The notes under the pieces: model-generated
What the model was told of the DNA's origin: nothing
Databases searched by the model: none
Seen by the model: the letters and a program-made list of their open reading frames with translations, nothing else
Assembly (NCBI GenBank): GCA_965219405.1
Contig: OZ244736.1
Coordinates: 143,730 to 207,729 of the forward strand
Origin: Dehalococcoidia bacterium
GTDB lineage: Bacteria; Chloroflexota; Dehalococcoidia; UBA6926
Reading direction: 5' to 3'
DNA length: 64,000 nt
Translations under genes and position numbers: made by a program
Shown here: positions 15,234 through 40,221 of the stretch, piece after piece
Layout: each line of letters opens with the position of its first letter
Position numbering within the stretch: the stretch's first letter is position 1

Positions 15234-15309
15234 TGGTGGAGCCGAGGGGATTCGAACCCCTGACCCCCTGCTTGCAAAGCAGGTGCTCTCCCGACTGAGC
15301 TACGACCCC
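15234..15309 (-). tRNA. tRNA-Ala (UGC)
   Basis: Reverse complement GGGGTCGTAGCTCAGTCGGGAGAGCACCTGCTTTGCAAGCAGGGGGTCAGGGGTTCGAATCCCCTCGGCTCCACCA; 76 nt, G3:U70, encoded CCA. Confidence 0.98.
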
Positions 15310-21925: not shown

Positions 21926-23230
21926 TCAGGTCCGGGTTTGGCCGTCTCCGACGATGGTCCACTTGTAGGACGTCAGTTCTCGCAGTCCCATTGGCCCACG
22001 CGCGTGCAGCTTGTTGGTGCTGATCGCTACCTCCGCGCCCAGCCCCAGCTGCGCGCCATCCGTAAACCGGCTTGAAGCGTTCACGATGACTGCCGCCGCG
22101 TCCACCTCATCAAGGAACCGCGCCGCGTTCTCGTCACTCGTCGTCAGGATCGCCTCCGTGTGGCCGGAGCCGTATTCCGCGATGTGCTCCAGCGCCTCAT
22201 CGATGGAATCGACCACCTTCACAGCGGCCGTCAGGGACAGGAATTCGCGGCCCCAATCGTCCTCGACGGCTGTGATGACCCGCGTGGGAGGCTCAGGGCC
22301 AATCAGCGCGAGCGAGCGCCTGTCCGCGTGGATCTCCACGTTGTCCCGCGCCCACGCCGCCACCACGGCGGGAAGCAGCGTAGGAGCGGCCTGCGCATGG
22401 ACAAGCAGCGTGTCCAGCGCATTGCACACCGTCGGCCGCTGCACCTTGGCGTTGTAGGCGATGGCGACAGCTTGCTCGATGTCCGCGTCCGCATCCACAT
22501 AGGTGTGGCAGACGCCGATACCCCCCGTCACAACGGGAATCCGAGCGTTGTCCCGCACAAAGCGAATGAGCGTATCGCTGCCGCGCGGAATCAACAGGTC
22601 GATCCCGCCCTCGTATACCAGCATCTGCCCGACGATGGCCCTGTCGGTGGATTCGATGATCTGGGCCGCGTCCCGAGGCAGCCCGGCATCCTCCAACGCC
22701 TCTTGCACGATGCCTGCGAGCGTCGTCGTGGAGTTGATGGCCTCTTTCCCGCCCCGCAGGATGACGGCGTTGCCGGACTTGATGCAGAGGGCGGCGATGT
22801 CGATGGTGACGTTTGGACGGCTCTCATAGACGGCGGCGATGACGCCGAGCGGCACGCGCCTGCGGCAGATGCGGAGGCCGTTGGGAAGGGTTGATATATC
22901 GAACTCCTCGCCGATGGGATCCGGCAAGGCGATGGTTGCCCGAACATCGGCGGCCATCCCCCGCACGCGCTCCTCGTTCAGCAAAAGCCGATCCAGCAAG
23001 ACATCCGACATGCCGTCTGCCTGCGCCGACGCATAATCCTGCGCGTTGGCGGCGACGATTTCGTCGGCGCGCTCCTCCAGCGAAGCCGCGATGCGCTCAA
23101 GCGCCCGGTTCTTCTCCTCTGTAGACGCCCGCGAAAGCGGCCGGCTCGCCTTGCGCGCCGCCTGCGCCTTGCTGACGAGCTCCTCTGAAAGTTCACCCAT
23201 TTCGGTTGATCGTGTCGCGGTCGCCGTCAT
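21926..23230 (-). CDS. proA: Gamma-glutamyl phosphate reductase
   Basis: VPLGVI..YESRPNVT, KSGNAVILRGG, CNALDTLLVH, NASSRFTDG, KLHARGPMGL. Confidence 0.97.
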   Translation of the reverse strand: MTATATRSTEMGELSEELVSKAQAARKASRPLSRASTEEKNRALERIAASLEERADEIVAANAQDYASAQADGMSDVLLDRLLLNEERVRGMAADVRATIALPDPIGEEFDISTLPNGLRICRRRVPLGVIAAVYESRPNVTIDIAALCIKSGNAVILRGGKEAINSTTTLAGIVQEALEDAGLPRDAAQIIESTDRAIVGQMLVYEGGIDLLIPRGSDTLIRFVRDNARIPVVTGGIGVCHTYVDADADIEQAVAIAYNAKVQRPTVCNALDTLLVHAQAAPTLLPAVVAAWARDNVEIHADRRSLALIGPEPPTRVITAVEDDWGREFLSLTAAVKVVDSIDEALEHIAEYGSGHTEAILTTSDENAARFLDEVDAAAVIVNASSRFTDGAQLGLGAEVAISTNKLHARGPMGLRELTSYKWTIVGDGQTRT

Positions 23231-23347
23231 CACGGTCACTCTTTCCCTGGACGGCAATGAAGAGTCTATGCCGCCGACTATTAGCGTTTATCGATTCTCC
23301 AATTGTAATTGCGTGGATGGGGGCCTTCAAATGAGTCAGGCCGCCCC

Positions 23348-24523
23348 TCACAGCAACGTCAGGTGGTCGCGGTGGACCATCTCTTCGCCGTGATAGATGG
23401 CACCAGAATCGCTTTGCGCGTCAAAGAAAGCGCGCACCTCAGGGGAGTGAAGACCTGCCAGACGCCGCATGAGGCCTGCGGGATAAGAGACCGCCCCCCG
23501 CGCCACGCCCGTCTCGTCCGGCCCGACGATCTCCACGACGTCGCCGGTGGTGAACTCGCCGCGTACCTCGCGAACCCCGACCGCGAGGAGGCTTGATGTA
23601 CCCTTTCGCAGCGCCCTCGCAGCGCCCTCGTCCACAACAACCTGTCCACGCACGAAGAGGGGACCGAGGGAACGCCTCCGGGCGGACGGACGCCGTCGTC
23701 CCCATGCCTCAAACCGCGTCCCGATATCCTCGCCCCGCGCGATACGCAGCAACACGTCCGGGGTCTTGCCGTTGGCAATCACGACCGCAGTGCCCCAGGA
23801 TGTGGCCTCCGCGGCTGCCCGAACCTTTGATGCCATACCCCCGCGTCCCAGTTCGCTCGGCATCTCGGCGGCCATCGCGAGCGTGGCGTCCGTCACACGG
23901 TCTACGCGGTGAATAAGCGCCGCATCCGGGTTGGCACGTGGATCACTGTCGTAGAGCCCGTCGCGATCCGTCAGGAGTATCAGCATATCCGCCGCCATGA
24001 GATTCGTGAGAGCGGCTGAGAGCGTGTCGTTGTCGCCGAGTGTTTCGCTCAGTTCCTCCGAGGCGACGACATCGTTCTCGTTGATGACGGGAATCACGCC
24101 GAAGCCCAGCAGTTCACGCAGCGTGCGGCGAATGCTGACAGCGGAACGGCCTGCAGTGAAGTCGGATCGGGTGATAAGCGCCTGGCCGACGATGAGCCCG
24201 TGATCCGTGAATGCCGCCTCCCACGAGCGCATGAGTCGGTGCTGCCCTATCGCCGCGAGGGCCTGCAGCGTCGCGACTCCCCGTCCTCTGCCCCGTAGAC
24301 CGATGATGCTGCGTCCAAGAGCAACTGCCGCGGACGTGACGACAATCACCTGCGATTGGGCAGCAACAATCTCCGCGACCTGCTTCGCAATCGACGTGAT
24401 GAGACCGTCATCAAGTTGATCACCACCACCTGTCAGCACACCGGTGCCGAGCTTGGCGATGATCAGCTGATTACGAGGCAACGCAGCGCCCTGATGCGTG
24501 TCTAATCCGGTGTTATTGACCAC
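23348..24523 (-). CDS. proB: Glutamate 5-kinase with PUA domain (start approximate)
   Basis: AKLGTG, AAIGQ, PVINENDVV, GDNDTLSA, GGMASKV.AA, VDEGA, HRDHL. Confidence 0.95.
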   Translation of the reverse strand: MVNNTGLDTHQGAALPRNQLIIAKLGTGVLTGGGDQLDDGLITSIAKQVAEIVAAQSQVIVVTSAAVALGRSIIGLRGRGRGVATLQALAAIGQHRLMRSWEAAFTDHGLIVGQALITRSDFTAGRSAVSIRRTLRELLGFGVIPVINENDVVASEELSETLGDNDTLSAALTNLMAADMLILLTDRDGLYDSDPRANPDAALIHRVDRVTDATLAMAAEMPSELGRGGMASKVRAAAEATSWGTAVVIANGKTPDVLLRIARGEDIGTRFEAWGRRRPSARRRSLGPLFVRGQVVVDEGAARALRKGTSSLLAVGVREVRGEFTTGDVVEIVGPDETGVARGAVSYPAGLMRRLAGLHSPEVRAFFDAQSDSGAIYHGEEMVHRDHLTLL

Positions 24524-24684
24524 AATCGCTCTCTCGCCAGCCCTCGGCGGCATTCCAGAAATACAGTCCAACGATAATCCGTTGCCAAACGACAACGGTG
24601 TTAAAAGTATATCCCCGTCATTCCTCTGCCACTGCTACAATCGGCTTGCCGCCGGATAGCGGCGACGATTCGAGTACCTGGCAG

Positions 24685-25911
24685 GTGAGCGCCATTCGCG
24701 TCACGACTCTTTCCTTGACCCATTTCAGGAACTACGCCACGCAGGACTTTGAGCCGGCGGACGGCGTCACTGTACTCGCGGGCGATAACGGGCAGGGCAA
24801 GACAAACCTCCTCGAATCCCTATTCATTCTCGCAACCGGCCACTCCCATCGCGCAGACACGGATCGAGAGGTCATCGGCTGGAGCGCGGCGCGAGAACCG
24901 ATACCGTACTCACGCATCGCAGCGGATGTGACCGCGGGCGATGGCGCGGAACGCAAGCTGGAACTCGTCATGCAGCTTGCGCCGCGAGGACAAGGAGGGG
25001 AACCTCCTGCGGTCGCTAAGAGAACGATCGGGCCTTCAGGTCTCAGGGGCGGCACGCTTCAGAAGGGCTACAAGGTCAACGGCGTCCGGCAGCGTTCGGC
25101 GAACAGCGTCGGCGACCTTGCGGTTGTTCTTGCGGGGCCGGAGGAGGTCGACCTGTTCGCAGGCCCTCCGGCGGACCGACGCCGCGCAATCGATTCAACT
25201 GCGCTCCAAACGGATGCGGAGTATGCCCAGACACTTCGACGCTATGAGCGGCTGGTCACCCAGCGCAATGCGGCGCTTAGGGAGGCCCGCGAACGTGGCA
25301 CTACGCAGAGGACTGAGGACATGCGCCTGTGGGAGCAGGAGATGATCCGCGCGGGCGCATTTCTTCTCGGCTTTCGGATGACCATGATCAACGTCTTGCA
25401 GAAAGAGATGTTGGCTGCCCACGCCGAATTCACGGGCCGCACCGGCCACCTTGCGCTTGAGTACCGTTCAACGGTCACTATTGGCGAGGATGAGGGCGCA
25501 TCCCCCGACCTGCAGCAGAGTTTCGCCGATGCCCTGGAAAGCGCGTGGGCGCGTGACTCGGCCACCGCAACGACGTCCGTTGGGCCGCACCGCGATGACC
25601 TGCGTGTGGTGTCCGGCGATGTCGATCTTGGCGTCTACGGCTCTCGCGGCCAGCAACGAACGGCGGCGCTTGCTCTGGTCATCGCGCAGTCGGCGTACAT
25701 CGGGCAAAGGCTCGGCGATGAACCGGTCATCCTGCTCGACGATCCGCTATCCGAGCTTGATGCGGATCGTCGCGAGCGCGTACTGCACCACTGCCTGACG
25801 CCCGGCCGGCAGGTTCTCATTACCACCGCCGACGTTGAACTCATCCCCGCAGAGGTTCGCGCTCATGCCGCTATGTTCACCGTGCGCGGCGGTTCTGTGA
25901 CAAAGGCGTGA
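24685..25911 (+). CDS. recF: DNA replication/repair protein RecF
   Basis: FRNY, GDNGQGKTNLLE, GPP..RRR, GPHRDD, GSRGQQRT, LLDDPLSELD. Confidence 0.96.
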   Translation: MSAIRVTTLSLTHFRNYATQDFEPADGVTVLAGDNGQGKTNLLESLFILATGHSHRADTDREVIGWSAAREPIPYSRIAADVTAGDGAERKLELVMQLAPRGQGGEPPAVAKRTIGPSGLRGGTLQKGYKVNGVRQRSANSVGDLAVVLAGPEEVDLFAGPPADRRRAIDSTALQTDAEYAQTLRRYERLVTQRNAALREARERGTTQRTEDMRLWEQEMIRAGAFLLGFRMTMINVLQKEMLAAHAEFTGRTGHLALEYRSTVTIGEDEGASPDLQQSFADALESAWARDSATATTSVGPHRDDLRVVSGDVDLGVYGSRGQQRTAALALVIAQSAYIGQRLGDEPVILLDDPLSELDADRRERVLHHCLTPGRQVLITTADVELIPAEVRAHAAMFTVRGGSVTKA

Positions 25912-25926
25912 ACTGTGGTTTCGCGC

Positions 25927-25955
25927 TTGACGTATATTCCTATTCGGCGTAGGTT
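25927..25955 (+). promoter_or_regulatory. Putative sigma70 promoter for the CoA-transferase pair
   Basis: TTGACG-17 nt-TAGGTT; followed by hairpin TCGGGCG/CGCCCGA (25968-25991) and GGAGG RBS. Confidence 0.6.
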
Positions 25956-26008
25956 CAAAGTGTGTGGTCGGGCGCATTTGAATTCGCCCGAATTATGGAG
26001 GATGTGTC

Positions 26009-26857
26009 ATGACGAGAATCGTCAGCATCGAAGAAGCGGGCAATCGATTCAAGGACGGGATGCTCATCGCCACCACTGGCGGCAATGACCGCGCATCCAT
26101 GGCGCTGACGCGGGAGATTGTGCGTCGCGGCATCGAGGACCTCACCCTCGTGTTCACGCCTGCGGGCGGCGTGCAGGGCGACATGCTCATTGGCGCGGGC
26201 GCGGTCAAGGCCATAGACACCGGCTCTCTCACGTTCGGTGAGCGGGGGTTCGCGCCGAACTACCGGCGTGTAGCCAAAGAGGGAGGAATCGCCGCGCTGG
26301 ACAGTACCTGACCCGTCACGCTCACAGGGCTCCAGGCTGGAGCCAACGGCGTGCCGTTCATTCCGTCCCGTGGCGTGATTGGCACCGACCTCGTCAATCT
26401 CCACCCCAACTGGAAGATCATCGAAGACCCCTACAACGAGGGACATGACATCCTGCTCGTTCCGGCCATTCGTCCGGACATCGCCATGATCCACGCCTTC
26501 AAGGCTGATCAGAACGGCAACGTCCTTGCGCCGAGCTACGAGGACCGCATGGTTGCCCAGGCAAGCGACAAGGTTCTTGTGACGGTTGAGGAAATCGTCG
26601 ATTACGACCTCTCCGAGGATTCGCGCGGCGGCCATCTGATACCGTGGCCGTTTGTCAGCCTCGTTATCCACACCCCGAAGGGCTCGCACCCCGGCGGCAT
26701 GAAGCCGTACTACGAGGCGGACAATGATCACTTCTCGCAGTACATGGAGGCCTCCAAGACGTCCGACGGATTCAAGGCATACCTCGACGAGTTCGTGTGT
26801 GGGCATACCGAGGACGAGTACCGCGAGATGGTGACACGCGTCGCCGTTCCCGCATAG
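26009..26857 (+). CDS. Family I CoA-transferase subunit A (GctA-like), 282 aa with in-frame TGA at codon 101; probable selenoprotein
   Basis: Track ORFs 26009-26311 and 26351-26857 are in the same frame and separated only by TGA 26309-26311; joined read DST-U-PVTLTGLQAGANGVPFIPSRGVIGTDL; motifs LVPAIRPD, ADQNGN, VTVEEIV, GSHP. Confidence 0.85.
26312..26353 (+). promoter_or_regulatory. Candidate bacterial SECIS element
   Basis: Lower stem CACGCT(26317-22)/GGCGTG(26348-53); upper stem GGCTCCA(26328-34)/TGGAGCC(26338-44); apical loop GGC starts with G, with 23 nt between it and the UGA. Confidence 0.7.
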
Positions 26858-26879
26858 ACCGTCGTACATCCCGAGCGCG

Positions 26880-27626
26880 ATGCCGTTTCAGTCAGACGAC
26901 TACACGATCGGCGAATTGATGGCCACCCGCATTTCGCGGGAGGTTCACGACGACACATATGTCGGTTCGGGCGCCGCATCACCGGTGCCGATGGCCGGTG
27001 TCCTTTTGGCACAGGAGACGCATGCGCCGGACATGATCTACATCGCAATCGGCGCGTCCAACCCTGCGCTAAGCCCGATCAGCGGCAAGGAGACCTTTGA
27101 CCTCGCCCAACGTGGCAAGCTCGACATCTTCTTCCTGGGCGGGGCGCAGATCGACGGCCACGGCAACATCAACCTGACCACAATTGGCGACCATGACAGG
27201 CCGGACGTGCGCCTCCCCGGCGCCGCCGGCTCCGGGATGCTCTACTTCATGACGAATCGCGTCATCCTCTTCCGCCTGGAGCACACCAGGCGCGTCTTCG
27301 TGGAAGATGTGGATTTCATCACGTCCGCCGGCTCTAGCGGGGAGCGTGTGGAGCGCCCCGGCGGCCCTTCCATGCTCATCACCAACATCTGCGTGATGAT
27401 GTACCAGAAGGATCAGAAGAAGTTCCTGCTTGAGTCCGTCCACCCCGGCGTCTCCGTCGATGAGGTGGTGGAAAACACCGGATTCGAGATCCTCATTCCC
27501 GACGAGGTGCCGGTGACAACGGCCCCGACGCCGGAGCAATTGGAACTACTTCGTGGCTCCATCAAAGACCGCGTCGGCGGCGAATATCCGGGGTTCGTCG
27601 CATCGGGAGGATTCGGGGACTCGTAA
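26880..27626 (+). CDS. Family I CoA-transferase subunit B (GctB-like)
   Basis: THAPD, FLGGAQIDGHGNINL, RLPGAAG, FVEDVDFITS, LESVHPGVS..EV.ENTGF. Confidence 0.92.
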   Translation: MPFQSDDYTIGELMATRISREVHDDTYVGSGAASPVPMAGVLLAQETHAPDMIYIAIGASNPALSPISGKETFDLAQRGKLDIFFLGGAQIDGHGNINLTTIGDHDRPDVRLPGAAGSGMLYFMTNRVILFRLEHTRRVFVEDVDFITSAGSSGERVERPGGPSMLITNICVMMYQKDQKKFLLESVHPGVSVDEVVENTGFEILIPDEVPVTTAPTPEQLELLRGSIKDRVGGEYPGFVASGGFGDS

Positions 27627-27765
27627 ACCAAGCCCTCACCGCCACGCTCGCCTCTGCGGGAGCGCCTCCTGGTTGCCGACGGTTCCGATATCCCCTTCGA
27701 TGATCAACGTGAACGAACCTGTCACCGTGTTCTTGACCGTCCCCACTGTGGATACGGTCCCTCGG

Positions 27766-29841
27766 TCAACATCCCCCGGTGGTTGCGCTGACCTGAGCGT
27801 AGTCGTGCCAGCGGTTCGAGTACTGCGCCTGCACCTGGAACTCATAATTTGTCGCGCACGTGAGGCCGGACACCGTCGCTTCCTGCCTGCGGGTGCCCCA
27901 CGTGCTGATGTCGACATACGCACCGAACGTCCAGTCCGTTGCCCCTGCGAGACGATAGTTGACGCGAACGTCCTGCAGGTGCGTGCCGGACGGCCTCACC
28001 TTGTCCCAGCTCACACGGACGCTGGTTGCGGTCACATCGCTGACTGAGGGATTTCCTCTGTTCGGGTCGGGTGTCGGCGTGGCTGTCGGAGGAACCGGTG
28101 TTGGAGTGGCCGTTGGGGGGACGGGAGTGGGGGTAGCGGTTGGCGGAACGGGGGTGGGCGTGGGTGTCGGCGTTGCAGTGGGTGCGACAGTAGGCCCTGT
28201 GCTCGTGTCGCGGATGCGCAGCATCAACTGGTCGCCGTCTTCCCATGGGGCGCTGGTGACACTCCATGTCCAAGTCGCCGCCGTTTGATTAACCGTAGCG
28301 TCGGAGACATCCAGAGTCGTATCGATAGACCCGTCAAGCTCGATAAAGTCCAGAGAGTTACCGCTCAGAGAAACGTGGTCATCCAGCGTCAGGACGACGG
28401 AGTTGCTCCGCCAGATAAGACTCTCAATCTCATAGTCATCGCCATTGAGGGTGAATTCATCCGGTTCAATGACCCCGGAAGATGCCGTCGTGCCCACACC
28501 GCCGCCGGTTAAGTCAACAGGATCAAAGATCGCCTCATGAAGAGTCCCACTGGGAGCGGTGACGGTCACGAAGTGCTCTTCGCTCGTCCGCTCCTCCTCC
28601 GGCAGTCCGTCGCAGACGACGAGCCCCTTCTCCATGCTGATGAAGTAGAACCTGTACTCCCCCGCCGGAAGTGGACGTGCCAGGGACACCTCGCCAGGGT
28701 ACTCCACGACGAATAGACTCTCGTCCTGCCCGTCCAGCTGGAACATGCTCGCATACTTGCTGGGGATGGTCTCGCCATAGTCATCCACCCAGATGTGCCA
28801 GAGCTCGTAGGTGTGGAACAAGCTTCCCGCCGCCTGCCCGGACGCCAGTGCATGGTCGTACCGATCGTAGTAGTAGCCGCCTTCGCCCTGGGCGGCGCGT
28901 TCTTCCTTGGTTTGGCTTACCCAGTTCTCATACTCGTACTTGAACCGGACGCACTCCCGGTACTCCTCCGAGCCGTCCCCCTCCCCGACCTCCGCGTCCA
29001 GCTCTGCGATCTTTGTCTTCATGTCCGCCAGGTTGATGGTGGCGGCCTGCGACGCGCCCTGATTACCCGGCAGGGCCCGCGCCATCCATGAAAGCACTGC
29101 CCCGCCCCCCGAAGGCGGCTCCTCAAGAAGGAAGCGCTGCGCCCCTGCGCTGGGCGCAGCCCCGCTGGATGCCCTCGCCTCGTCAACTGGTACTGGTAGA
29201 CTGTCAGACGCCGCCGGCAGCCACACCTTGGAGTACCGGCCGGCTATAGTGTAGTTTTCCTGCCCATAGGAGTTGCGCAGAGACCAGAGGAGGTACCTGT
29301 CCGCTTGCCCGGTGCTTGGCAGATATGGTTCGTCATCATGCAGGAACACTATCGCCTCCCGGGCGTCCCACCTTGTGTCCCTCTCTCCCAGGAAGTCTTC
29401 TGCGCCTGCGCCCGCCTCCGCCCTAGTTGCAAGAAGCCCATACCAGTCAACTGCTATCGCCACAAGCTCGCTTCCACCGCTCCCCTTCAGGTACTCGTGT
29501 ACCTTGAACCTGAACTCCAGGGCGTTTGCGTACGAAGTGTCTCCTTGGTTGGGCCGTCCGGAGATTTCCTCCACCACCTGGGCCGCGGTTACCAGAGTCA
29601 CCCTTGCTATGGCGTCACTCCGCACTATCCTCTCCTCCAGCGAAGTCTCGGGGAAGTCGGGGGGAGGGATCCACCAAGCAGACTCTCGCTGCAAGCCTCC
29701 AGACGCGCCCGGCAGTGGCGAATTCCCGTTCAGACTCATTGATCCGGCATAGAGGACGGCGGCTGCCAACGCCACGGCCAGGACTATGAGGACTCCAGCA
29801 ACGGAGTAGAGGCGTCGTCTTCTGCGTACCATTGCCAACAT
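27766..29841 (-). CDS. Secreted or membrane-anchored protein with PT linker and C-terminal fibronectin type III domain
   Basis: AGGAGG RBS; RRRRR plus hydrophobic N-terminus; PTATPTPVP repeats; SDVTATSVRVSW...VSGLTCATNYEFQVQA. Confidence 0.85.
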   Translation of the reverse strand: MLAMVRRRRRLYSVAGVLIVLAVALAAAVLYAGSMSLNGNSPLPGASGGLQRESAWWIPPPDFPETSLEERIVRSDAIARVTLVTAAQVVEEISGRPNQGDTSYANALEFRFKVHEYLKGSGGSELVAIAVDWYGLLATRAEAGAGAEDFLGERDTRWDAREAIVFLHDDEPYLPSTGQADRYLLWSLRNSYGQENYTIAGRYSKVWLPAASDSLPVPVDEARASSGAAPSAGAQRFLLEEPPSGGGAVLSWMARALPGNQGASQAATINLADMKTKIAELDAEVGEGDGSEEYRECVRFKYEYENWVSQTKEERAAQGEGGYYYDRYDHALASGQAAGSLFHTYELWHIWVDDYGETIPSKYASMFQLDGQDESLFVVEYPGEVSLARPLPAGEYRFYFISMEKGLVVCDGLPEEERTSEEHFVTVTAPSGTLHEAIFDPVDLTGGGVGTTASSGVIEPDEFTLNGDDYEIESLIWRSNSVVLTLDDHVSLSGNSLDFIELDGSIDTTLDVSDATVNQTAATWTWSVTSAPWEDGDQLMLRIRDTSTGPTVAPTATPTPTPTPVPPTATPTPVPPTATPTPVPPTATPTPDPNRGNPSVSDVTATSVRVSWDKVRPSGTHLQDVRVNYRLAGATDWTFGAYVDISTWGTRRQEATVSGLTCATNYEFQVQAQYSNRWHDYAQVSATTGGC

Positions 29842-29855
29842 CGCTGCACCTCCTG

Positions 29856-31976
29856 TCACTGCCCTGACGAAGCCGGATGCGGCGTATGGTTGTAATATAC
29901 GTCCCGGAGGTAGTCCCGATCCTCGTTCGGAATTGCTGTCGGCTTCTCGACTCTACCCATGATGTAGTCGGCGTAGCTGCAAATGCCGAAATACTCGCAC
30001 GGTTTGCCCTCAAGCCGATACAGGTCTTCCAGGCCCGCAGCATGGCCGAATTCGTGCATGACCGTCCTCGGCACGTAGTAGTAGCGGCGGTAGAGGCTTC
30101 CCCTTACTTGCTCGTCATGCAAATCGGGATCGTTGACCCAGGTAATCGCCAGGAAACGCCCTTCAATGTCTGGGTGAGGTCGACGCGCCGGTTGCTCGAT
30201 GACCATTGTCGAGGCGTTTATGTGCTCGAGGGCATCGACACTAACTATCGCGTATGCGAGGGTGAGGCCATCAGTTCCAGTCGCTGTGTTAATGACGATC
30301 GACTTGCCGTCGGTATTCCTGTCCACGCCGTTTATCGTGCAGCCACTCCCCTCGCAGAAGAGCACGTGGGGCCAGGGCGTGGCGACCGCCTCGTTCCATG
30401 CGACGACGGCGTGGGCAATGGCCGTTGGAATGACGATTCCTGGATCGGTTGACGGCGTAGCGCCGGGCCTGGGCGTCGGAATCTCGCCAAGCCGGTACTT
30501 TACCGTGTGATCCCCTGCATGCCCCAGGTTGGGAAGCGGCACCTTCGTCTCAATCTCCACCCACCCGGAGTATTGACTGCCTCGCTTTGCCCTGATTCTG
30601 TGCTTGTAGGTATGGTCGTAGTCCAGCCCGCTGATCACGGCCCCCGTGATGATGCCGGGGCCACGGTTGAACACAATCTCTATGTCCCTGTTAGGAAGCG
30701 GATACCAGTCGTAAACTGGAAGCAGCGGAACCCACTTGGCCCAATGCTCCACCTCATAGGTGATTCCAATACCCGCTGCATCGCTCCAATCGAGGTATAT
30801 CTTCCCTATCTTTTCCCCAGTCCTAAGGACATCAGTGTCTATGGCCGAGGCTCGGTCATGCAGGCCCGTTAGCACTGGTGGTCTGGGCGTAAGGGTTGCA
30901 GTGGGCGTCGGTGTGTTGGTGGGTATAGGCGTAGGATCATCGCAGTTGTCCTCTATATCAACGGTCGCGGTGGACGGTGAACCCAACCCAACGCCAGATG
31001 GTAAGGCGCCAAAGCCGAGAGTCAGCCTCTCGTCGGCGCAATCCGAATCCGCAATGGCGTTGATTGTGAACGACGCCGATGTGACTCTATTAAATGGAAG
31101 GCTACTGCCGCTTAGCCCACTTATGCTGTAATCTGCGGATTCCGCAGACCCGAGTGTCACCGTGATTGGTATCATCAATGTTTGATCGCTCGCTCGACTG
31201 AGCCGGACAGTGATGGTCTTGTTACGTTCCTCATCGACTGCGTACGATGACGGGCTGAAACGTACCGTTGGTGTCGGTGGTGGCGGGCACCCAAGCGCTG
31301 TGGTGCTGATGGATTCGATCGCAGAAGGAGGCCCATAGGCATGTCTGTACCTGATCCCATTCCCATACGCGGACACGCGGAAATAGTTCGTCCCTTCGCA
31401 ACCGGCCGGGTAGACGTCGCTTGATCTCCTTGCTTGCCTTGCCCAATCATCCCCGCTGTCTCTGAGTGGTAGAACGCTTCCCCACGCGCCTCCGCTTCCA
31501 ACTCGACGCTCCACCCGGTAGGTGGGTGCGTATGGCATGAACGTCCACCGGACATTAGCTCTTCTGGTTGTGCCCAACGGCGTCGCGGCCGTCACCGAGA
31601 CGTCTTCTACTGCAGGTGGCGTGGGCAAGGGTGTTGGCGTTGGTGTAGGTGGCACGGGCGTAGGCGTATTCGTCGGCGGGACGGGTGTATTCGTCGGCGG
31701 GACGGGCGTATTCGTCGGTGGGACAGGCGTATCCGTCGGCGGGACGGGTGTATTCGTCGGTGGGACGGGTGTTGGGGTTGCTGGATATGGATCCTCGATT
31801 GGATCGAATGGAATGAATGCGGTTGGAACCGGCGTGGGTGTCGCTGTCGGGGGTATATAAGGATCATCCCCGCCCTTGCCGAATGCGGCAGGGTTGCTGA
31901 CCACAATATAGGCAATAGCGATCAGCAGGGCGATGCTGGCTACAACCTGCAGCGCCGTCTTGCCAATACTCAACAA
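29856..31976 (-). CDS. Secreted modular protein: PT repeats, FN3-like, Calx-beta-like, C-terminal metzincin zinc peptidase
   Basis: N-terminal hydrophobic anchor; [12 protein letters not shown]...ATVDIEDN; [16 protein letters not shown]; [11 protein letters not shown] plus YIMG Met-turn. Confidence 0.85.
31663..31767. repeat. Five tandem 21-nt repeats encoding Pro/Thr-rich PVPPT(N/D)T units
   Basis: GG(C/T)GTAT(T/C)CGTCGG(C/T)GGGAC(G/A) x5, contiguous, inside the CDS. Confidence 0.9.
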
Positions 31977-40145: not shown

Positions 40146-40221
40146 GGGGCTGTAGCTCAGTTGGGAGAGCGCTTCAATGGCATTGAAGAGGTCAGGGGTT
40201 CGACTCCCCTCAGCTCCACCA
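40146..40221 (+). tRNA. tRNA-Ala (GGC)
   Basis: GGGGCTGTAGCTCAGTTGGGAGAGCGCTTCAATGGCATTGAAGAGGTCAGGGGTTCGACTCCCCTCAGCTCCACCA; 76 nt, G3:U70. Confidence 0.98.

Follow-up and report, generated by a model that had tools for sequence, protein, structure and literature searches.

A conserved in-frame UGA, probably read as selenocysteine, in a CoA-transferase-fold subunit gene of a Dehalococcoidia bacterium

Does the single TGA that interrupts a coenzyme A (CoA)-transferase-like gene of a Dehalococcoidia bacterium end a protein, mark a damaged gene or encode selenocysteine (Sec)? The gene lies in a stretch of 64,000 nucleotides (nt) of contig OZ244736.1 (assembly GCA_965219405.1, positions 143,730 to 207,729; hereafter the window), and positions at the locus are counted from its first base. 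A plus-strand frame of 282 codons runs from ATG 26009 to TAG 26855-26857, with a lone in-frame TGA at 26309-26311 (codon 101) and the surrounding residues AALDST-U-PVTLTGLQAGANGVPF. An earlier note, made from the letters alone, had joined the two halves across the TGA into one GctA-like protein of 282 amino acids (aa) and had proposed that the UGA encodes Sec. The joined frame is borne out by the sequence, and the Sec proposal gains strong support from the Sec machinery of the genome, the conservation of the UGA, a Cys column in homologues and a covarying hairpin; each check suggested in the note that was carried out favoured Sec. The preferred reading, to which a probability of about 0.88 is assigned, is that the gene encodes a 282-residue alpha subunit with the class I CoA-transferase fold, in which UGA 101 is decoded as Sec via the downstream hairpin.

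The eight closest database proteins (61-93% identity) are all C-terminal fragments of 168-180 aa, and full-length homologues are found only at 46% identity or below. Gene callers thus appear to split the gene everywhere, as the earlier note had anticipated. All 16 aligned full-length homologues have Cys in the column of codon 101, within the motif D-[SA]-T-C-P or a close variant; the motif D-x-T-C-P that the note had put forward is thus correct. Among 41 related genomes there are 31 matches, 26 of which contain exactly one TGA, in every case (26/26) at the same codon. At 36-44% identity, members of a different family of the order and of a different family of the class still have the TGA at this codon. 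When the class was sampled more widely, with 151 genomes of at least 80% completeness and a match threshold of E <= 1e-40, there were matches in 30 genomes, with one TGA in 25 of 31 matches. The codon takes only three forms across 80 named loci of GTDB species genomes, TGA (22 loci), TGC (36) and TGT (22), so that Cys occupies the column in all 58 loci without TGA. The TGA forms span four phyla (Chloroflexota, Myxococcota, Methylomirabilota and Bacillota), in keeping with the expectation that related genomes would carry the codon. A selA match above cut-off is present in 26/26 genomes with a TGA form, and the five genomes that lack a selA match also lack the TGA form.

The codon was also compared with independent sequence data, a check that the earlier note had suggested. 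Contigs from two public DNA runs and two RNA-library runs, all four compared as contigs, cover 26309-26311 without difference; both DNA runs belong to studies other than that of the best-matching run. Because the TGA is unchanged in contigs of these four other public runs, an assembly error is ruled out. The RNA-library contigs, whose runs carry the label sponge metagenome, extend across the TGA (26221-26423 and 26232-26641) with 95-99+% likeness. They give a weak hint that the UGA region is transcribed, DNA carry-over being possible.

The segment directly after the UGA can form a hairpin of the kind expected of a bacterial Sec insertion sequence (SECIS), an element described as having a guanosine in its small apical loop (PMC1088965). 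The first loop G lies 23 nt after the TGA, exactly where the earlier note had placed it. In 30 distinct Sec forms, 95.7% of the cells of the upper helix are paired, and changes on both sides occur in 4/7 pairs (12 cells). These two-sided changes include G-C to U-A or A-U, C-G to G-U or A-U, and A-U to G-C. None of 500 shuffles reached the pairing value, and controls slid along the alignment gave 18-47%. All 30 Sec forms share the same GGC loop and the same CC/GG pairs beside it. When the same columns were scored in 58 Cys forms, only 46.1% of the cells were paired, 168/500 shuffles reached the value and slid positions did no worse. The covariation test proposed in the earlier note therefore separates the two groups, with compensatory change in the Sec forms and none in the Cys forms. 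It is these comparative tests, not the fold energy, that place the hairpin beyond chance. A search of Rfam returned no matching family at the hairpin and two chance-level matches (E-values: 0.78 and 6).

The gene is under selection on both sides of the TGA. Against six congeners, the ratio of nonsynonymous to synonymous substitution rates (dN/dS) lies between 0.025 and 0.071 in codons 1-100 and between 0.051 and 0.119 in codons 117-282. These low values on either side of the TGA point to strong purifying selection on both gene halves. The synonymous rate dS is 0.54-1.43 in the regions that flank codons 102-116, and there is extra constraint on silent sites directly after the TGA (Table 1). In 22 congeneric sequences, 6/15 codons are variable in the windows 101-115 and 106-120, compared with 12-15 of 15 in every window wholly outside codons 96-125.

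The genome, a single contig of 1.897 Mb, encodes the means to decode UGA as Sec. SelB (305 bits) and SelA (534 bits) both score above curated cut-offs and both frames are open. A tRNA-SeC is detected, and selD itself has an in-frame TGA (HCAG-U-AAKLG). The search for selA, selB, selC and selD that the earlier note had recommended thus finds all four. Other interrupted genes were sought with a scan for frames bridged by a TGA. A looser version gave 340 candidates and was swamped by antisense frames; a stricter version gave 17 but missed selD, and so does not represent the complete selenoproteome. In seven of the 16 candidates other than the present gene, a Pfam domain reaches across the TGA or borders on it: GrdB, DUF3179, Prx (TGGU), DsbA-like (UPWC), Trx-like (WUPSC), DUF427 and MetE-like. 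Four are uninformative, three lacking a Pfam match (L126, L130 and L133) and one having a domain wholly downstream of the TGA (L131). Because the machinery is present together with seven further TGA-bridged genes, Sec decoding is likely to be in regular use in this organism.

The remaining five candidates (L125, L127, L129, L135 and L137) were rejected, as they look like two genes or an ordinary stop. A PF00384 search of the genome found no in-frame stop in the two molybdopterin enzymes. Selenoprotein genes of known types lie at 343212-344483 (L128, DUF3179), 1597230-1598576 (L132, GrdB-like), 1149367-1149831 (L136, Prx with TGGU), 1576647-1577285 (L139, DsbA-like with UPWC) and 347319-348008 (L140, Trx-like with WUPSC), and most have a hairpin after the TGA. 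That of GrdB has a 7-bp stem and a GGU loop starting at the 19th nt after the UGA. GrdB and SelD of the same genome resemble the gene described here in three respects, namely an in-frame UGA where homologues have Cys, a post-UGA hairpin whose small apical loop contains G, and reliance on selA, selB, selC and selD.

Three other explanations of the TGA have to be weighed against Sec. Standard annotation would take it for a recent nonsense mutation or a sequencing mistake, and a single in-frame stop is indeed the commonest lesion. Such an accident is refuted by a TGA shared by all 26 stop-bearing matches and by 22 named loci of independent assemblies, by dN/dS of 0.025-0.119 on either side of it at near-saturated dS, and by its unchanged state in DNA contigs of two other studies and two RNA-library contigs; the probability of a pseudogene or error is negligible. 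Alternatively, the TGA could be a true stop, with a 100-residue piece and a 168-residue piece translated from GTG 26351 assembling into one protein. The earlier note had pointed to this alternative start and to the GGAG 8 nt 5' of it; both are present in the sequence, and a 168-aa open reading frame (ORF) is called in relatives. The called starts vary among relatives, however, and those of P0007 and P0009 lie further upstream. The 13 codons from TGA to GTG are invariant in protein within the genus and correspond by homology to PAIHAGLQAAEKG in the Cys forms, and both GGAG and GTG sit within the conserved hairpin tiers. A split gene would also leave unexplained why the column is Cys in 58/58 homologues without TGA and why TGA forms are found only in selA genomes (26/26). 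Split translation is accordingly very unlikely.

The UGA might instead be read through as a standard amino acid, either by a near-cognate tRNA for Trp or Cys or by insertion of Cys via the Sec pathway under selenium scarcity, in which case most of the mature enzyme would be no selenoprotein. Cys is functional at this column in 58 homologues, and the identity of the inserted residue is deduced from comparison. Nevertheless, the genome has a complete Sec machinery, a conserved covarying hairpin stands at SECIS distance and TGA forms are confined to selA genomes. At other sites of the genome TGA does serve as an ordinary stop, and several TGA-bridged pairs are two separate genes. This kind of read-through is therefore also considered a highly improbable explanation.

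Several observations weigh against decoding of codon 101 as Sec. The two-tier stem-loop of the earlier note stands in its upper part, but the lower tier is weak: 77.8% of its cells are paired, the column pair 12/42 is unpaired in 17/30 sequences and RNAalifold drops the stem. Even in the upper helix RNAalifold retains 5/7 pairs, with a small covariation term (-0.31). The fold energy of the single sequence is ordinary (z = -0.68), and 53/200 shuffles fold as well. The hairpin also encodes the conserved peptide GLQAGA, and part of its conservation must therefore reflect protein constraint. The Cys-form control meets this point in part, since the Cys sequences are more distant. As the sequences are related to one another, the shuffle counts overstate their independence. 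Finally, Sec insertion at codon 101 is deduced from sequence comparison.

The recoding route would be the standard bacterial mechanism. The conserved 7-bp hairpin with its GGC loop, 16-35 nt past the UGA and within the coding sequence, would recruit SelB carrying Sec-tRNA(Sec). The recoding would thus follow an ordinary route, and the novelty would lie in the protein family and in the likely non-redox role of Sec in an active site.

What might a lone Sec do in a protein of this fold? The subunit-A-like gene and the partner gene that starts 22 bases past its TAG both match PF01144 (bit scores of 54.1 and 79.5, respectively; cut-off 23), and the partner frame is open, as the earlier note had described. 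NCBIfam has no dedicated model for either product and gave weak matches far under its cut-offs. A subunit B homologue is present in 109/110 loci. Of the features that define a class I CoA-transferase, the PF01144 fold in two adjacent subunits is present and the catalytic Glu of the beta subunit is absent. Residue 58 of subunit B, at the corresponding site, is Gly in 48/48 Sec-type loci and 44/53 Cys-type loci, with an alignment uncertainty of one position. The segment at the site of GctB Glu and AibB Cys56 reads [IVL]x[LI]G[SA], without a conserved acid or Cys. Because subunit B lacks the catalytic Glu, the protein is assigned to the fold and not to CoA-transferase function, and the enzyme is probably not a classical CoA-transferase. 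There is no second conserved Cys in subunit A or subunit B. In three outgroup pairs, in which subunit B does have the Glu (FEAG, TEDG or TESG), the codon-101 column of subunit A is A, N or T.

Among solved structures, GctA (1POI), AibA (5MZW) and IpdA (6CO6, 6COJ and 6CON) give the best matches to subunit A. In profile alignments to these Protein Data Bank chains, residue 101 (Cys in the profile) faces a Gln of GctA, a Gly of AibA and precisely the IpdA residue that differs between entries, with Glu in 6CO6 and 6CON but Ala in 6COJ. The placing of residue 101 relative to the CoA site comes from sequence alignment to these chains. The IpdA residue is presumably Glu105, the proposed catalytic base of the ring-cleaving hydrolase IpdAB. 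Given that subunit B lacks the catalytic Glu and that the column matches the residue that varies between 6CO6 and 6COJ, we infer that the lone Sec or Cys is the catalytic residue.

GctAB of Acidaminococcus fermentans (1POI) is the top solved relative of both subunits (profile E-values: 6.9e-45 for A, 9.1e-34 for B), and the two systems share a pair of adjacent genes, the PF01144 fold and similar lengths. They differ in that GctB has the catalytic Glu54-beta (PMC5380842) where subunit B has Gly, and GctA has Gln in the Sec/Cys column. The selenoprotein literature surveyed contains, in its main texts, no record of a Sec form of GctA. AibA/AibB, the 3-methylglutaconyl-CoA decarboxylase of Myxococcus xanthus (5MZW-5N03), is the second-best solved relative. 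It is likewise a non-transferase pair of the CoA-transferase fold, in which Cys replaces the catalytic Glu (PMC7756340). This residue, Cys56B, is on the beta subunit (LACVGS in AibB), whereas subunit B of the present pair has no Cys there and AibA has Gly in the Sec/Cys column.

IpdAB, a hydrolase of the CoA-transferase fold that cleaves steroid rings, offers a further parallel. Its beta subunit also lacks the catalytic Glu, Glu54-beta of glutaconate CoA-transferase corresponding to Gly57-beta in IpdAB, which is not a transferase (PMC5380842). The Sec101 column falls exactly on a functionally important alpha-subunit residue, Glu in 6CO6 but Ala in 6COJ. In IpdAB that alpha residue is Glu, whereas all 80 named loci here have Sec or Cys there, and identity to subunit A is low (profile E-value: about 1e-37). 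Moreover, IpdAB is found in steroid-catabolic clusters, while the present pair is without conserved neighbours and lies among proA-like, proB, recF and fn3 genes.

The model of enzyme action that follows from these comparisons is a conditional one. The lone Sec (Cys in aerobes) would act on an acyl-CoA by a route other than the classical Glu-anhydride CoA transfer, with Sec taking the part of nucleophile or of acid/base; a reaction of hydrolase or lyase type is one example. In its fullest form the proposal describes a new selenoenzyme family, in which a lone D-S-T-U-P Sec at the catalytic alpha position of an IpdAB-like enzyme without the beta Glu would carry out selenoester- or retro-Claisen-type acyl-CoA chemistry and not thiol redox; the Sec form would be common among anaerobic or microoxic lineages in four or more phyla and may precede the Cys form of aerobic Proteobacteria. 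This composite proposal is speculative and, taken as a whole, less likely than not.

Three points weaken the case for this enzyme function. That Glu105 of IpdA takes part in catalysis is reportedly a proposal of Crowe et al. 2018. In two Cys-type loci, L088 and L096, from metagenome-assembled genomes (MAGs) of Rhodospirillales and Kiloniellales bacteria, subunit B reads VELLES instead of the xVLGS found elsewhere; these pairs may keep the canonical Glu beside the alpha-subunit Cys, which would argue against a relocated catalytic residue. The neighbourhood offers no functional context either: the 108 ORFs examined on the flanks of 28 diverse loci are spread over 103 Pfam families, each with three members at most, and no neighbour is conserved.

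The history of the two forms was examined with a quick maximum-likelihood tree of 80 rows, 19 of the 99 initial rows having been dropped (those under 200 residues, or of the same length as a retained row and over 93% identical to it). A single clade unites the 54 proteobacterial Cys forms (Shimodaira-Hasegawa-like approximate likelihood ratio test: 100). The 21 Sec forms and one Paenibacillus Cys form are arranged as a basal grade, and the fewest Sec/Cys changes needed are two. The basal position of the Sec forms is a hint, and since the root rests on four long branches, an ancestral Sec form is a possibility.

Has the family been reported before? A search with selenoprotein or selenocysteine together with CoA-transferase or glutaconate CoA-transferase gave no title or abstract on such a family in the literature searched; PMC5736913 mentions selenoproteins and CoA-transferase separately. 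More than 110 prokaryotic selenoprotein families have been reported, most of them thiol-type oxidoreductases (PMC13188914, main text), and the listed families mostly have UxxC, CxxU or similar motifs (same source) in contrast to the lone D-S-T-U-P Sec found here. A CoA-transferase-like family or PF01144 is absent from the main text and family table of that 2026 review. It is likewise absent from the main texts of a 2022 review (PMC9312934), of the deep-Sep paper (PMC12013277), of the Global Ocean Sampling (GOS), Olavius, Sargasso, 2016 comparative and 2021 deltaproteobacterial papers, and of the BSepDB paper (PMC13326102), the entries of that database being a separate source. The earlier note had left it undecided whether the family was already on record: none of the main texts surveyed names it, but supplements and BSepDB entries may list it.

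If the preferred reading is true, the range of selenium enzyme chemistry would widen to include a CoA-transferase-fold Sec that has no redox partner Cys and sits at the catalytic position of a relative. It would also give a handle on the large uncharacterised group annotated as 'glutaconate CoA-transferase subunit A/B', which is probably misnamed because the catalytic Glu of the transferases is missing. As the gene is split or truncated in 8/8 close entries, its annotation is likely to be broken in metabolic reconstructions of Dehalococcoidia, SAR202 and sponge-associated MAGs. The named relatives are themselves MAGs of uncultured Dehalococcoidia.

The features of the locus are collected in Table 1. 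The ribosome-binding site that the earlier note had called intact is indeed present, 5 nt ahead of the ATG. The note had also described an intact promoter, but a consensus scan of 25700-27800 gave no sigma-70-type promoters, and this claim is not upheld.

Table 1. Positions of the features at the locus, in window coordinates
Feature	Position	Strand	Remarks
Ribosome-binding site GGAGG	25999-26003	+	Read directly from the sequence; ATG 5 nt downstream
Subunit-A-like gene, CoA_trans (PF01144) fold	26009-26857	+	282 codons plus TAG, with one UGA inside
UGA codon 101, putative Sec	26309-26311	+	Same codon across relatives; Cys in other homologues
Silent-site constraint, codons 102-116	26312-26356	+	dS 0-0.26, no amino-acid change; footprint of RNA structure
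Possible lower tier of SECIS, weakly supported	26317-26353	+	26317-26322 pairs with 26348-26353; encloses upper hairpin and includes GTG 26351
SECIS upper hairpin, 7 bp	26328-26344	+	Arms 26328-26334 and 26338-26344; loop GGC 26335-26337
Subunit-B-like partner gene, PF01144	26880-27626	+	248 aa; frame intact; Gly58 at the canonical catalytic-Glu site

Two of the TGA-bridged genes outside the window deserve separate mention. The first (L134, 4773-5228, minus strand) encodes a DUF427 protein (PF04248) with the TGA within the domain (TST-U-PFKG); its congeneric orthologues have one TGA in 20/22 cases and none in two. The second (L138, 1714521-1715666, plus strand) encodes a MetE-like Meth_synt_2 protein (PF01717), again with the TGA within the domain (FHL-U-RGNQG), and its close orthologues have one TGA in 13/15 cases and none in two. 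The TGA site of this protein falls in the H-x-C motif, a zinc ligand in MetE. Neither the DUF427 family nor the MetE-like family is mentioned in the main text of the 2026 review (PMC13188914), and because it is not named there, the DUF427 protein may be another unlisted selenoprotein.

The genes around the pair in the window are of other kinds. Directly upstream (21926-25911), the minus strand carries a proA-like gene (Aldedh) and a proB-like gene (AA_kinase and PUA), and the plus strand carries recF. Downstream, on the minus strand (27766-31976), are ORFs of 697 and 706 aa, the first with only a C-terminal fn3 domain and the second without a Pfam match. The window also contains two tRNA-Ala genes, at 15234-15309 and 40146-40221.

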